Positions 55,734 through 64,000 of a stretch of DNA of 64,000 nt are shown here, in pieces. The notes under the pieces were generated by a model that had not been told where the DNA came from, ran no database searches, and saw only the letters and a program-made list of their open reading frames with translations. Each line of letters starts with the position of its first letter. The stretch's first letter is position 1. The stretch lies in the IMG/VR virus record IMGVR_UViG_3300046170_000505; one strand, written 5' to 3'. This DNA is from a virus. The translations under genes were made by a program, and so were the position numbers.

Positions 55734-55798
55734 AACAAAGTGCATTTTAATTAAACTTTTTTCTTTACAAGGTATGCGTATTGGTCTATATTGTATCT

Positions 55799-56185
55799 AT
55801 GACAGAGAGAAATCCAGGAAACAAAAAGTATAAGATTGACCACAAGAAAAAGGTCTTTGTATACAAGAACCTTCACAAAGATTGTTGGTCAGTCAAGCAA
55901 GACGGACTAGTCAAAGCACACACCGATGAGATTAATCTTTGGGACTGTGCATTTCAAGTAAATGCCAGGGGCAGACAAAAAGTTATTGATGAGCAACGCA
56001 AAAATGTTCACGCGGGCATCAATGGTTACATAGATGAACTTGATCTAGATTTACCTAATCCTGTGGAAGTAACTTACAACCCATACAAGTATGATTCTTT
56101 TGTTGACAAGGCAACCGAGTCTCCTATATACTCTATGGATAACGCAAAACTAACACACAACAAAGTAACAGCATATACAACATGA
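55799..56185 (+). CDS. conserved phage hypothetical protein
   Basis: VFVYKNLHK..F.V...GR..V...RKNVHAG..TYNPYK; leaderless start. Confidence 0.75.
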   Translation: MTERNPGNKKYKIDHKKKVFVYKNLHKDCWSVKQDGLVKAHTDEINLWDCAFQVNARGRQKVIDEQRKNVHAGINGYIDELDLDLPNPVEVTYNPYKYDSFVDKATESPIYSMDNAKLTHNKVTAYTT

Positions 56186-57957
56186 AATTATTAAAAGACA
56201 TTATAGATAATTGGGGTTTCGTAGACTCCAAGCAACTAAAAGAACTTGTGGAATATTTTCCATCAGTACCATTGGTTATTAAGTGGGGCATGAGAGAAAG
56301 AGAGATTTTCAAGGCTTGCGAAGTATCCAAACGCATAGAGAAAGTTGAGTCCGAATCAGACGACTATGTTCGTGAAGTTTTCATTAACGCAGGAAACTTA
56401 AAAAAGTTAAGAGAAGTATTGGGGGTAAAAGCGTGAAACAACTATTAGTTAAGATACCTATGTCACAATCTATTCAAGAAGTTATTGATTACATTTATTA
56501 TAGCGAGATGGAGGGTAGAGAGGACGAAACAGATTCGTGGTATACCACCTATAAAAGTTTATTAGAGTTAAAAGAAAAAGTATTAGATGAGGAGGATATG
56601 ACATGAGAAGTTGGGAAGAAAGAGACATAGTTGATATATTAAAAGAGCGACATGGCGAATTGAATAAAGCGTCAGTTGAGTTATCCGAAGGTGGCGATCA
56701 TGAAGGCTCAGATGCAATTGATGATGACCTTTTAATTATCGAAGATTTTTTAGAGAAACAATTCAGTGTCAAGTGGTACGGCACACAATTCCTCAGAATA
56801 CCAATCAAAGGATAAACATGAATAAATTAATGGAAGCACACAAAAGAAAACTATCGCCTGAGTCATCAATTGTCGCAGCAATCAATGGAATTGCAGATGA
56901 ACTATATGAGTTGAGAAAAGAGAACAGAGATCTTCAAGGCGAATTAAAAAACATAGCGGGGTCTCTCGATTATGTTAGTCAATACCTCTACGACATTAGT
57001 TGGGAGCTAAAGAAAAACAGAGAAAAAAGTATTGACAAAGAAGTTCAACTAAGTTAGATTTATATTATGACAGAAAAAACAATAGTAGCAGACACACCCG
57101 AAGCGATAGACCGATTCCGATTGGTAGCTCTTAAAGGAGCGTTAAAGATGGAGGTTCTTGGTATGACAAGACGAGGTCAATCAGTCTATTCAATCGTAAA
57201 ACAAGAGTTCGGATTTAAAGGCAACAAGGTATCCGTACTAAAACAACTAGAACAAAAAATTAAGGAGATTATTTAAAATGACTAAAGCACAAATCGAATC
57301 AAGAGTAGAAGGTTGGAATTGGAACATGAACATCTTTGAGATATACGATGAACTCAGAGACGGGCATACGGGAGAACAACAAGAGCAACTTTTAACTTTT
57401 GCTTATAATTATTTCAATAAAGATTCAGCTATCGCAGATTTAGCATGTCACTTCGGCATCACTATTGAAACAGACGAAGACTCACCAATCCCTTGCTAAG
57501 ATGAGAATAGAAGAAAGAATGATAGATTATGCCCAAAAGTGGTATGAAGTAAACGACCTAGAGACAGAGAAAAAGAACGGAAACGATCTTTATCTTCGAG
57601 TCAATGACAATGTATTTACTGAAGTCTCACACTGCGACATCAGACAAAAAGCCATGCTATGGTTAGAATCAGAATTAGAAGGAGTAAACAATTATTAAAA
57701 TGAACAATTACATAGAAGGAGTTTGCATCGGAAGTCCAATTGACTTACCCGAATACGATGAACAAGCAGAGCAATGGAAACTATGGTTTGAAGAGTCCGA
57801 GACCCCATACCACCCATACGACGAATTGCTTAGGGAGAACATTAATTTTCCTGATCTAATTTCTTATAGTTGTGACTCAGCCGAAGAGGCTTGCGAGCTT
57901 TACAACTATTACAACCAAAACCCTGTAACAAAGGACGCCAATGAAACTACTAACTAA
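56182..57957 (+). other. run of small hypothetical CDS
   Basis: Coupled ORFs; promoter TTGACA-17-TAGATT at 57032. Confidence 0.65.
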
Positions 57958-58171
57958 AATTCTTAACGCAGTTAAACCAAAGTACAAGCTTGTTTACCGT
58001 ACAGCTAACGGAGCAACTGCAATGTATACAATCACCAAGCCAAAACACAAAGGCGAGTTCGGCAACATGACCGAAGGCAAAGATGTTGTCGGCTTTAAAT
58101 CTTGGTGCTTTAATCGAAATGGATTTAGGTCTTTTCGTTATGATCGCATCGTAAGCCTAATAAAGGGATAA
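57941..58171 (+). CDS. stand-alone WYL-like domain protein
   Basis: WCFNRNGFRSFRYDRI; paralogue of 9483..9737. Confidence 0.6.
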   Translation: MKLLTKILNAVKPKYKLVYRTANGATAMYTITKPKHKGEFGNMTEGKDVVGFKSWCFNRNGFRSFRYDRIVSLIKG

Positions 58172-58340
58172 TTATTATGACACTACAACAAAAACTAAGG
58201 GCTCTCGGGCACCAATTGGCTGAGGCAGAACTATACGGGTTTAACATCCCTCAACCTCTAGACGCGAAGCATTACTACATGCTTAATAAGTTTTACAAAT
58301 TCAAAACTCGCAAATAGCAAATAACCTTTCCTCCACTACT

Positions 58341-58382
58341 AGCCCCGTCTTTGGTTGAGTTATGCCAAGGACGGGGTTTTTT
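58341..58382 (+). terminator. intrinsic terminator
   Basis: AGCCCCGTCTTTGG...CCAAGGACGGGGTT followed by a T run. Confidence 0.85.
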
Positions 58383-58451
58383 ATAAAGTACTGAGCATCA
58401 ACAACTTACGCGGGCCTGGGCCGCCTAAGCCCTTGATTACCAAGGACTTAG
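58383..58451. repeat. twin-dyad element copy 2 (between convergent genes, no promoter)
   Basis: ATAAAGtaCTGagcatCAAcaACTTAC-gcgggcctgggccgc-CTAAGCccTTGattacCAAggACTTAG. Confidence 0.88.
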
Positions 58452-58463
58452 GGGCTTTAAGGG

Positions 58464-62319: not shown

Positions 62320-62388
62320 GTAAGTCTTTGGTAACCAACGACTTACGCGGGCCTGGACCGCCTAAGTACTTGATAGTCAACAACTTAC
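62320..62388. repeat. twin-dyad element copy 6
   Basis: GTAAGTctTTGgtaacCAAcgACTTAC-gcgggcctggaccgc-CTAAGTacTTGatagtCAAcaACTTAC. Confidence 0.9.
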
Positions 62389-62495
62389 AAAAAAGTGCGT
62401 TTTTATTGTATTTTTTTCTTGCAACTTTTTATAAATTACCTTATTGTCTTATACATGATCAGGTTTATCTAAATTAACTTAAAAACATATATAAC

Positions 62496-63494
62496 ATGAA
62501 AGTACAAACTACAAACAAAACTAAAAAAGCATCAAAACTATCTTTTGCTAGAAAACTTGGCAGATCAAAAGCTAAGATGGCTACAAAGTTAAGTGAAAGC
62601 GAAAAGATTGAGACTCAAGACTTTTTTGAAGAAAACTTCGTGAAAGATGATTACGAGTATTTACCCGTAACCTTTACTAGTGAAGATTTACCTTTGATAG
62701 AATACATGAAGTCTTCAGAGATAAACTCCAATAACAGACAAAAGGTTGCGGATAATGTTGCAAGATTATTTCGTTGTCTTAAAGCGGGCATATGGTATCA
62801 AGAAAATCTAGATATCCATGTAGCTAAAGAAGGTCACTTAATGAATGGACAACACACATTAGAGGCTGTAGCTCAATTTTTCTTGGATGCAAACACACCA
62901 AGTGGTTCTGAAGTACCAATCGGATTTAAGATTGGTTGCAATGAAGATGCAATGCCTTATTTGGACACCCAAAAGAAAAGAACCCCTGAGCAAAACCTTA
63001 TGATCGAAAATGTTTTACTTAACCCTACTCAAAAAGCTATTGTTTTAATTGAGGGAAAAAGAGTTATACATGGTAAGCCTTTTGGTTATAGTGGTCAAGT
63101 CAATTACTTTGAGTACGAAGATATCATTGAAGACAATAAAAGCATATTAACGGATGTCTTTAAAGACAGAGTCTTATCTAGAGATTTCCCACATAAATCT
63201 ATAGGCTATGCTTTGTTCTTGCTTGCAAAAGAGAATCAAGAATTAGCAGAAGATATCATGAATGAGATTTGTGATTCTCATAGCATGGAAAACAGGGGAA
63301 AGTCTTTCGCTGATCCAAAACAACTCGAAGAGCATTTGTTAGTCGAAATGTACAGAAGAGAAAAAAGGGATAAAATAGACACAATGAGTAGCAAGACTAA
63401 CAGAGATTGCTACCGCCAAGAAGAATTCTTTCCTATTGCGGTTGATTGGTTAGTCTCAAACCATAACATTGACAGAAAGGTTTTCAAAGCATGA
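62496..63494 (+). CDS. ParB/Srx-like N-terminal domain phage protein
   Basis: NNRQ...V......G.W; G.LMNGQHTL.A; LD..K.R. Confidence 0.6.
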   Translation: MKVQTTNKTKKASKLSFARKLGRSKAKMATKLSESEKIETQDFFEENFVKDDYEYLPVTFTSEDLPLIEYMKSSEINSNNRQKVADNVARLFRCLKAGIWYQENLDIHVAKEGHLMNGQHTLEAVAQFFLDANTPSGSEVPIGFKIGCNEDAMPYLDTQKKRTPEQNLMIENVLLNPTQKAIVLIEGKRVIHGKPFGYSGQVNYFEYEDIIEDNKSILTDVFKDRVLSRDFPHKSIGYALFLLAKENQELAEDIMNEICDSHSMENRGKSFADPKQLEEHLLVEMYRREKRDKIDTMSSKTNRDCYRQEEFFPIAVDWLVSNHNIDRKVFKA

Positions 63495-63826
63495 GCCACT
63501 ACATAAAGAAAGCAATTAACTCGTATCAAGAGCTAGCGTTCTACATTGGTAAGACTAGGTTATGCCCAATAACCCAAAGGGCTAATCCAAAGAATCAATC
63601 AGTATCTGACTTTGCAAAAAATGGTCAAATGTATTGGAAAACTATAATGCACATTGATGACCATAAATTGCATCCTGAGTTCGGGGAGTCATTCTTAATT
63701 AATTGTTTTAGAGATAAACTTAGCCACTTAGTCTTACTCAACAAAGACATACCTCACGCTATGGCATTAGTTTATGACAAAAAATCAGAGTCGCTCATAG
63801 ATAAGCTTTTTAAAGAGTTATCTTAA
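63491..63826 (+). CDS. hypothetical protein
   Basis: Coupled ORF. Confidence 0.6.
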   Translation: MSHYIKKAINSYQELAFYIGKTRLCPITQRANPKNQSVSDFAKNGQMYWKTIMHIDDHKLHPEFGESFLINCFRDKLSHLVLLNKDIPHAMALVYDKKSESLIDKLFKELS

Positions 63827-63835
63827 CTTAATCGC

Positions 63836-63904
63836 GTAAGTCATTGATAGTCAGTGGCTTACGCGGGCCAGGGCCGCGTAAGTACTTGCGGGTCAACAAC
63901 TTAC
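63836..63904. repeat. twin-dyad element copy 7
   Basis: GTAAGTcaTTGatagtCAGtgGCTTAC-gcgggccagggccgc-GTAAGTacTTGcgggtCAAcaACTTAC. Confidence 0.9.
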
Positions 63905-63969
63905 AACATAATGTAAAAAAACTTAACTTTTTTCTTGCGTTAATTAACTACATATGCGATAGTATTATC

Positions 63970-64000
63970 ATGATAGCAAAACAACAATTACTTAACTTCG
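63970..64000 (+). CDS. 5' end of next gene (partial, MIAKQQLLNF...)
   Basis: TTGCGT-17-GATAGT-6-ATG. Confidence 0.55.
   Translation, partial: MIAKQQLLNF

Follow-up and report, generated by a model that had tools for sequence, protein, structure and literature searches.

The region from 55.6 to 64 kb of IMG/VR virus record IMGVR_UViG_3300046170_000505, a stretch of 64,000 nucleotides that we call the window throughout, carries seven copies of a twin-dyad element, six of which stand just upstream of a promoter whose -10 box is followed almost at once by a start codon. We hold, with slightly better than even confidence, that element and promoter together are a composite cassette unit resembling the PeSL (promoter-early stem-loop) cassette units of T4-type phages, and that the dyads are a site on double-stranded DNA for a protein acting as a boundary or modulator. 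Often headed by the terminator of the preceding cassette, such a unit would comprise four half-sites CGTAAGTnnTTG arranged as two dyads around a spacer of 73% G+C, then about 30 nt of A/T-rich sequence with CTTTTTTC at its end, a -35 box in which only TTG is fixed (TTT in this genome), 17 nt, TAnnnT (with TGn in some copies), 6 nt and the ATG. A dimeric protein, probably of host type or typical of mobile elements, would bind the dyads on double-stranded DNA between about -66 and -130, immediately upstream of the UP-like tract, where it would delimit the cassette and modulate the promoter that keeps only the T-tract and TTG, while the repeat itself would supply the homology for cassette shuffling.

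Twin-Dyad Elements and Promoters in the Window

Each element has the layout AAGTnnTTG-N5-CAAnnACTT, a G+C-rich spacer of 19 nt and a second such dyad, and the start-to-start distance of the two dyads is exactly 42 bp in all seven copies. With up to two mismatches allowed, the dyad occurs 14 times in 55.6-64 kb, always paired, and only three times, unpaired, in the other 55 kb; the twin-dyad pattern is well beyond chance. All seven elements are on the plus strand, at 55667..55731 (element 1, with dyads 55667-55689 and 55709-55731 and the spacer GCGCGAGCCCGACCCGCAT), 58385..58449 (element 2), 58871..58935 (element 3), 60337..60401 (element 4, whose spacer contains the perfect palindrome GCGGGCC-A-GGCCCGC), 61686..61750 (element 5), 62322..62386 (element 6) and 63838..63902 (element 7). 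Plus-strand terminators precede several of them: that of the preceding unit at 55592..55646 (hairpin plus U7, -26.3 kcal/mol, z -3.5) lies 21 nt upstream of element 1, the intrinsic terminator of cassette 1 at 58341..58384 directly abuts element 2, and that of cassette 3 at 60292..60320 ends about 17 nt upstream of element 4, with no terminator found between the stop codon at 63826 and element 7. Element 2 is promoterless and is placed between its terminator and the 3' end of the minus-strand gene 58464-58775.

In six of the seven copies, 32 nt separate the last base of ACTT from the -35 box, the gap ending in CTTTTTTC, and in all six the string (A/T)(C/T)TTTTTTC directly precedes the hexamer, which is followed by a 17-nt spacer and the -10 box. 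Promoter 1 (55732..55801, like all the others on the plus strand) has its -35 TTTACA at 55764-55769, its -10 TATATT at 55787-55792 and its ATG at 55799, where an L5 gp82-like gene of 128 amino acids begins. Promoter 3 (58936..59005; -35 TTTACA at 58968-58973, -10 TACTAT at 58991-58996, ATG at 59003) leads into a conserved basic protein of 39 amino acids. Promoters 4 (60402..60471; TTTACA at 60434-60439, TGg plus CATAGT at 60457-60462, ATG at 60469) and 5 (61751..61820; TTTACA at 61783-61788, TGc plus GATATT at 61806-61811, ATG at 61818) have the same hexamer, while promoter 6 (62387..62457; -10 TATTGT at 62442-62447, ATG at 62455) has TTGCAA at 62419-62424 and promoter 7 (63903..63972; TGc plus -10 GATAGT at 63958-63963, ATG at 63970) has TTGCGT at 63935-63940. 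The -35 box of these dyad-linked promoters fits 3-5 of 6 bases, with an UP-like T-tract in all copies and a TGn-extended -10 in three of the six (copies 4, 5 and 7). The distance from -10 to ATG is 6 nt in five of the six and 7 nt in copy 6, and taking the A of ATG as +1, the dyad centres fall at -79 and -121. A preliminary description of this DNA had placed these centres near -80 and -122 and had claimed an exact 30-bp gap to the -35 box in six of the seven copies; both are borne out, given that its element ends two bases later than ours and its 30 bp are our 32 nt, and every coordinate that it listed is correct, as are its T-tracts, 17-bp spacers, -10 boxes and the ATG 6-7 nt further on.

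Five of the six dyad-linked start codons open conserved open reading frames (ORFs). The exception is copy 6, whose ATG at 62455 opens an ORF of only five codons (MIRFI), with a 332-amino-acid gene starting 41 nt downstream, at 62496; neither a Shine-Dalgarno sequence nor a promoter of its own was seen for that gene. Element 3 also has a TTGACA promoter on its other side, directed leftward and 27 nt away from dyad 1. This promoter (58843-58815, minus strand; TTGACA-N17-TAATAT) has a leader of about 40 nt with an AAGGA Shine-Dalgarno sequence and would drive 58464-58775, the sole minus-strand gene of the zone, as an exception to the leaderless rule described below.

A Distinct Promoter Class with Predicted Leaderless Starts

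The elements were surveyed in 21 related IMG/VR loci (designated by L numbers) in addition to the window, which gave 62 twin-dyad elements with 124 dyads. A logo of 38 dyad-linked promoters from about 12 related phages, anchored on the -35 box, is near-invariant in (A/T)(C/T)TTTTTTC, in TTG and in the A and final T of TAnnnT (CTTTTTTC plus TTG, and TAnnnT), and the ATG lies exactly 35 nt from the first -35 base in 34 of the 38; free variation is seen at the three final positions of the -35 box, in the spacer of 17 nt and over most of the gap upstream. The favoured hexamer is specific to each genome, TTTACA being peculiar to this one and TTGTGT, TTGCTA, TTGCGT and TTGCGG occurring in relatives. 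Across 24 loci, the -35 box is degenerate in 19 of 27 dyad-linked leaderless promoters versus 57 of 191 without dyads, with an odds ratio of 5.6 and a Fisher value of 7e-5 that is only indicative since the promoter copies are related, and the promoter type that keeps only the T-tract and TTG has a dyad within 50 bp in 40 of about 50 cases. By these measures the dyad-linked promoters are a distinct class, as had been proposed earlier, with CTTTTTTC plus TTG almost invariant and the neighbouring bases drifting.

The position of the start codon is, by comparison, a poor mark of this class. Altogether, 218 predicted promoters in the 24 loci have an ATG 6-7 nt after the -10 box, 205 of them on the gene strand, and 112 of the 218 are perfect TTGACA promoters without a dyad. 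In the window, about 45 sites match the sigma-70 type strongly, and 11 of them, mostly with TTGACA, have such an ATG, against a chance expectation of about 1.4, so the 6-7 nt that had been listed among the traits of the dyad-linked set are shared far beyond it. Perfect TTGACA-N17-TAnnnT promoters of the leaderless type are spread over 327-59398, with -35 boxes, for example, at 327, 30308, 38281, 45440, 53538, 54761, 57032 and 59361. With 6 nt between the -10 box and ATG, +1 would fall on the A of the start codon, which predicts a leaderless mRNA for the opening gene of each unit; the internal cassette genes, unlike the first genes, have Shine-Dalgarno sequences. The promoter is thus predicted to be sigma-70-like with +1 on the start-codon A, and leaderless starts are predicted to be general in this phage, TTGACA promoters included.

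The weak -35 box had also been read as the sign of an activator, and this reading does not necessarily follow. The strong early promoters of T4 combine the elements UP, -35, TGn and -10 and work without an activator (PMC2988021). By analogy, a weak -35 box need not imply one here, given that an UP-like tract (present in all window copies) and TGn (in three of six) can compensate for it.

The Dyads as Probable Protein Half-Sites

Conservation in the 124 dyads is seen in the outer AAGT/ACTT blocks and the inner TTG/CAA blocks, and the two middle arm positions are Watson-Crick pairs in only 27-37%. On the sense strand, G:T pairs number 112 against 172 A:C pairs, so that G:T is not favoured, and when the 3' arms were shuffled among elements, the pairing at the variable positions was 0.31-0.54 as observed versus 0.33-0.56 as shuffled (p 0.5-0.93). 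This absence of covariation between arms makes an RNA hairpin unlikely, and, by these counts, each arm drifts around a consensus half-site independently and not as a paired stem. The RNA or cruciform reading of the dyads was consequently rejected on the pair counts together with the shuffling. In one subclade (L002, L003, L005 and L037), only the right arm CAACGACTT is kept, as direct repeats 55-56 bp apart; in this subclade (e.g., L002:14405-14490; AATTATATGgtattCAACGACTT) an A-tract and a good -35 box (TTGACT) stand 20-21 nt further on.

The central spacer has 73% G+C in a genome of 33% G+C, and what is conserved in it is composition; we rejected it as a conserved hairpin, a perfect stem of at least 5 bp being present in only 21 of the 62 elements. 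Three hairpins are predicted for either strand of the element (-31.5 and -37.1 kcal/mol, z -4.3 and -5.8), which is what any palindrome would give, and no U-tract directly follows any of the three, so they do not have the form of an intrinsic terminator. Strong canonical terminators do lie just upstream of copies 1, 2 and 4, and those copies are therefore probably little transcribed. We infer from the behaviour of the arms that the element is a set of four half-sites recognised on double-stranded DNA by a protein. The consensus of Escherichia coli IHF (WATCAANNNNTTR) fits 46 of the 124 phage dyads versus 0.7% of background windows; most of the copies, and also the host copies described below, do not fit it, and the match looks like a by-product of the dyad consensus and is thus a weak lead.

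Spacing, Homogenisation and Cassette Borders

A repeat finder groups six window copies into a 99-nt ungapped repeat family of 67-79% identity, which extends from dyad 1 across the gap to the first -35 bases, the gap sequence itself being conserved (ACAACAAAGTGCAnTTTAATnnAACTTTTTTC). When copies belong to one ungapped repeat, their equal spacing is in itself no evidence on helical phasing. Between genomes, the dyad-to-dyad spacing takes values of 41, 42, 47, 48, 50, 53 and 55 bp, uniform within a genome apart from some copies that are off by 1 bp, and over the whole survey it ranges from 41 to 56 bp, that is, from 3.9 to 5.3 helical turns. The gap between ACTT and the -35 box also goes by genome: the window and most L028 copies have 32 nt, most copies of L008, L021, L024 and L039 have 31 nt, most L009 copies have 28 nt and L030 has 29 nt, with other values of 12, 20, 21, 27, 38, 71 and 74 nt. 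Altogether, the gap is 28-32 nt in 38 of 49 predicted dyad-linked promoters, despite a change of up to 15 bp in the dyad spacer. No fixed helical phase of the site relative to the -35 box emerges from these values, the spacing being constant only within a genome.

The spacer sequence of the elements is likewise genome-specific, which is why the exact spacer pattern of the window is absent from IMG/VR. The non-dyad parts show 73% identity between cassettes of one genome versus 68% between orthologous cassettes of different genomes, from which it follows that copies of the unit are homogenised within each genome, and copying plus homogenisation of the whole unit accounts for the apparently exact spacing. 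The 30 bp that had been taken as the sign of a phased activating or DNA-wrapping module are, in short, part of a 99-nt repeat, and across genomes the gap runs from 12 to 74 nt.

The dyads also occur apart from the promoters. Twelve of the 62 elements have no such plus-strand promoter downstream, some of them lying between convergent genes, and L028 shows the same promoterless arrangement as window copy 2, with a terminator, the element and the 3' end of a minus-strand gene in succession. Of five complete relatives, four have all their elements within one zone of 6-10 kb after rIIB and none elsewhere in about 200 kb, with 7-8 elements per complete relative where counted; the fifth, G005, has few matches, and these are scattered. 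Gene-order maps of 12 relatives show the same element-bounded cassettes in different order, and inverted in L035. The reshuffled cassettes comprise the gp82-like gene with 10 small genes, the 39-amino-acid basic protein with DUF932, and a 68-amino-acid protein with GP88; their genes are mostly ORFans, the only family matches being L5 gp82-like, DUF932 and GP88. On this evidence, the dyads are separable from the promoters and mark cassette borders.

Twin Dyads in Planctomycetaceae Repeats

We searched prokaryotes, one genome per species, with a pattern that demands a complete dyad and, 18-33 nt from it, the beginning of another; about one chance match is expected. The matches include large chromosomal contigs of Planctomycetaceae metagenome-assembled genomes (MAGs) of 60% G+C. 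At one mismatch or less, the dyad occurs 25 times in one of them, G006, and 27 times in another, G008, versus 3 and 0 times for the reversed control. In G006, a twin dyad (AAGTCGTTG-tgccg-CAACGACTT, with the second dyad 56 bp on) is found in a multi-copy element, about 430 bp in from its left end and about 145 bp upstream of the first ORF of that element, which encodes 101 amino acids and is followed by DUF6744 and AAA_5 ATPase genes. This element of at least 3.5 kb (L055:4483-8000) is also present in L049, L050, L051, L056 and L057, all of them loci of Planctomycetaceae/Planctomycetia MAGs, at 83-94% identity, and no protein homology was found between its first genes and the phage loci. In G008, a repeat of about 165 bp resembling a miniature inverted-repeat transposable element (MITE) has a twin-dyad core with 42-bp spacing and a GCG...-type spacer between 25-bp terminal inverted repeats (TCAACGAYCCGACAAACGGCTAGAA); its copies at L090:4859-5025, L091:5016-5179, L092:4855-5020 and L093:4935-5098 are 94-95% identical, with diverged copies nearby, and the same genome holds other dyad-bearing repeat families too. 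When a sequence-only profile was made from 24 phage elements with 42-bp spacing (A1, R1) and from nothing else, it matched G008 at six places, most of the matches covering nearly the full model. The Planctomycetaceae repeats have no counterpart of the promoter part that lies downstream in the phage unit. The dyad motif belongs to particular planctomycete lineages.

Single dyads were also seen in G006 4-9 nt after the 3' ends of two tRNA genes (L076:1048 and L078:1087); these could be terminators, processing sites or remnants of integration sites. Among the 10 best of the 52 Y1-transposase loci in G006-G008, none has a dyad within 1.5 kb, which gives no link to RAYT transposases or to repetitive extragenic palindromic (REP) sequences. 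Matches in Rhodobacteraceae, Flavobacteriaceae, Puniceicoccaceae and Bdellovibrionota MAGs were set aside, as they lie on phage-like contigs of 1-6 kb that are probably mis-binned and therefore uninformative on the host; those in L047, L048, L052 and L059 look like chance or single dyads and were also discarded.

The window itself has genes of planctomycete character, namely, the Planctomycetes/Verrucomicrobia signature pair of PSCyt2/PSD1 (DUF1549/DUF1553) at 2759-4855 and DUF1501 at 4869-5942, the DUF1501 protein having up to 52% identity to Planctomycetota proteins. Given these genes and the Planctomycetaceae twin-dyad repeats, a planctomycete host, together with a dyad-binding factor of host type or mobile-element type, is a reasonable hypothesis and no more.

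The Phage and Other Features of the Window

The window has about 33% G+C, and its plus strand holds nearly all genes. The genes rIIA (48446-50746) and rIIB (50901-52202) stand just upstream of the dyad zone; the best cultured-phage match to rIIA is only 25-30% identical (tblastn), megablast of 55-64 kb against cultured phages gave no match, and rIIB matched 45 loci in uncultured IMG/VR contigs, several of which are complete genomes of 194-214 kb. With rIIA and rIIB just upstream and the rIIB matches in uncultured contigs, the zone is, by its gene content, the hyperplastic early region that follows rIIB in the genome, about 200 kb long, of an uncultured T4-like phage.

Rfam has no family covering the twin-dyad elements, and its sole real match nearby is a full-length manA RNA (RF01745; 81 bits, E 7e-20) at 55161-55370, just upstream of element 1. 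ARAGORN calls a candidate tmRNA at 2406-2802, where it overlaps the beginning of the PSCyt2/PSD1 ORF. A fold of about 105 nt at 62207-62311 (-32.4 kcal/mol, z -2.0), in the stretch separating cassette 5 from element 6, resembles a cloverleaf: its T-arm, GCAGG-TTCGACT-CCTGC, is canonical, and a stem of 10 bp, interrupted by a 3-nt bulge, closes it. Neither ARAGORN nor Rfam made a call on it, and it may be a tRNA remnant or a tRNA-like element.

Comparison with Known Systems

The closest likeness is to the PeSL cassettes of the T4-type phages RB49/phi1, T4/PST and KVP40/nt-1, which are reordered at their repeats and in which one GGGG...CCCC stem-loop terminates transcription and a Shine-Dalgarno sequence is included (PMC2839356, PMC4122927). 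As with the PeSLs, we find an intergenic composite repeat of about 100 bp in a hyperplastic T4-type region, flanking cassettes of ORFans whose gain, loss and reordering between related phages take place at the repeats, and the repeat likewise combines a sigma-70-like early promoter and an A/T-rich upstream tract with a G+C-rich, partly palindromic block. The phage unit differs in having two 23-bp dyads of a specific half-site in place of the single terminator stem-loop, in keeping only the TTG of the -35 box behind an invariant CTTTTTTC, and in that its dyad module is also present in Planctomycetaceae repeats. The T4 early promoters (PMC2988021) share with it the use of host sigma-70, the 17-nt spacing, an A/T-rich tract, a frequent TGn and small early genes near rII, whereas here the last three -35 bases are degenerate, the T-tract abuts the -35 box, the predicted start is on the start codon and a conserved twin dyad lies at -66 to -130.

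The middle promoters of T4 have a MotA box 12±1 bp from the -10 box and depend on sigma appropriation by AsiA and MotA. Their likeness to the present promoters consists of a normal -10 box with a non-canonical upstream element, and TTGCGTTA-like strings loosely resemble the MotA box TGCTTtA, but the conserved motif here is CTTTTTTCTTG and it stands 17 nt from -10, which is the geometry of a sigma-70 -35 box, and not 12±1. Given this geometry, and with neither gene detected in the five complete relatives, sigma appropriation by MotA/AsiA was rejected as unlikely. With REP sequences, their bacterial interspersed mosaic elements (BIMEs) and REPINs, the elements have in common short palindromic units in doublets, intergenic and multi-copy, which in those families are sometimes bound by host proteins (IHF, gyrase); they differ from REPs and REPINs in having no hairpin covariation, no RAYT link and a promoter at a near-fixed distance.

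Weighing the Explanations

The reading of the preliminary description, in which the dyads are activator or DNA-wrapping sites at a fixed helical phase (-79 and -121) that are needed by the weak -35 promoters and switch them on as one regulon, is doubtful in our judgement, even if several facts speak for it. Weak -35 boxes do associate with dyads (19/27 versus 57/191), the promoter that keeps only the T-tract and TTG is seldom without one close by (40 of about 50), the arms look like half-sites for a protein, a gap of 28-32 nt is kept in 38 of 49 promoters even as the dyad spacer shifts by up to 15 bp, and in phages where MotA and AsiA were not found some other switch to the middle mode would be needed. 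Against it, a range of 28-32 nt already means about 140 degrees of rotation, and gaps of 12, 20, 21, 27, 38, 71 and 74 nt also occur; dyad-to-dyad distances of 41-56 bp share no face of the helix; 12 of the 62 elements have no such promoter; the UP-like tract, with TGn in three of the six window promoters, can compensate for a weak -35 box (PMC2988021); and no activator gene was found among the cassette proteins, nor MotA, AsiA or HU/IHF in the five relatives. We regard as equally tentative a version free of helical phase, in which the dyads would be operators for a host-type (Planctomycetaceae-like) or unrecognised phage protein that switches the CTTTTTTC-TTG leaderless class in T4-like phages without MotA/AsiA, and a host factor could still be the dyad-binding activator.

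That the twin dyad is a selfish or neutral repeat of MITE or REP type, acquired from the host, with no role in transcription and offering only homology for recombination, seems to us unlikely. It would suit the G008 repeat of about 165 bp, whose core is the twin dyad, with 25-bp terminal inverted repeats and copies 94-95% identical, as well as the presence of the twin dyad in the multi-copy element of at least 3.5 kb in G006, the promoterless phage copies, the shuffling of cassettes at the elements and the homogenisation within genomes. Yet phages with an rIIB identity of only 55-90% still share the half-sites, whereas their loops, spacers and flanks have drifted, which indicates selection on the motif; the elements keep to one zone in four of five complete relatives, mostly in a single orientation relative to the promoter; the 10 best Y1-transposase loci of the Planctomycetaceae genomes have no dyad within 1.5 kb; and no terminal inverted repeats of the host MITE type surround the phage copies. 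Least probable is an element acting as RNA or single-stranded DNA, be it as a terminator, attenuator, RNase site, 3' stabiliser, cruciform or attC-like substrate. The three hairpins on either strand, the single dyads 4-9 nt after two Planctomycetaceae tRNA genes and copy 7, which has no upstream terminator and would thus be transcribed, are in keeping with it, but there is no compensatory change, pairing at the variable positions being that of shuffled arms, with 112 G:T against 172 A:C pairs and Watson-Crick pairs in only 27-37% of the middle arm positions; moreover, the left arm is absent in one subclade, no U-tract follows any hairpin, Rfam has no match, and the terminators just upstream of copies 1, 2 and 4 leave those copies probably little transcribed.

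The composite PeSL-like unit with a protein-bound boundary or modulator site remains the explanation that we favour, and several points weigh against it. The terminators are separate here and upstream of the element, with a spacer stem of at least 5 bp in only 21 of 62 elements, so the terminator that is part of the PeSL motif is not part of this one, and there is no Shine-Dalgarno sequence or leader as in the PeSLs. Scans of about 30 small cassette proteins with Pfam and PHROGs found no DNA-binding domain, and in the five complete relatives there is no HU/IHF gene and no MotA or AsiA, the Pfam models for the latter two being silent also in control genomes, which lack them. The narrow gap of 28-32 nt across diverged phages could be a real distance constraint. 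The Planctomycetaceae profile matches are moderate (E 9e-5 to 9e-3 per genome), and 150 other Planctomycetota genomes show no general enrichment of the dyad, with about 246 forward matches versus about 250 in the control (summed by hand). Finally, promoter use, leaderless starts and timing are all predictions from the DNA sequence.

Significance

To our knowledge, the control of timing is poorly understood in T4-like phages without MotA/AsiA, which include most marine ones. In this clade, one early region has two clear promoter classes, the perfect TTGACA promoters and the dyad-linked CTTTTTTC-TTG promoters, both predicted to be leaderless. If the operator reading were true, these phages would have an early or middle regulon dependent on an upstream site, with a control module captured from, or shared with, the mobile repeats of the host. 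Under the composite-unit reading that we favour, the PeSL idea would be extended to a distant uncultured branch, where composite promoter repeats with a different upstream module would serve as engines of cassette shuffling. In either case, the Planctomycetaceae repeats, together with the PSCyt2/PSD1 and DUF1501 genes, provide a concrete host hypothesis for a phage group that has no cultured member.

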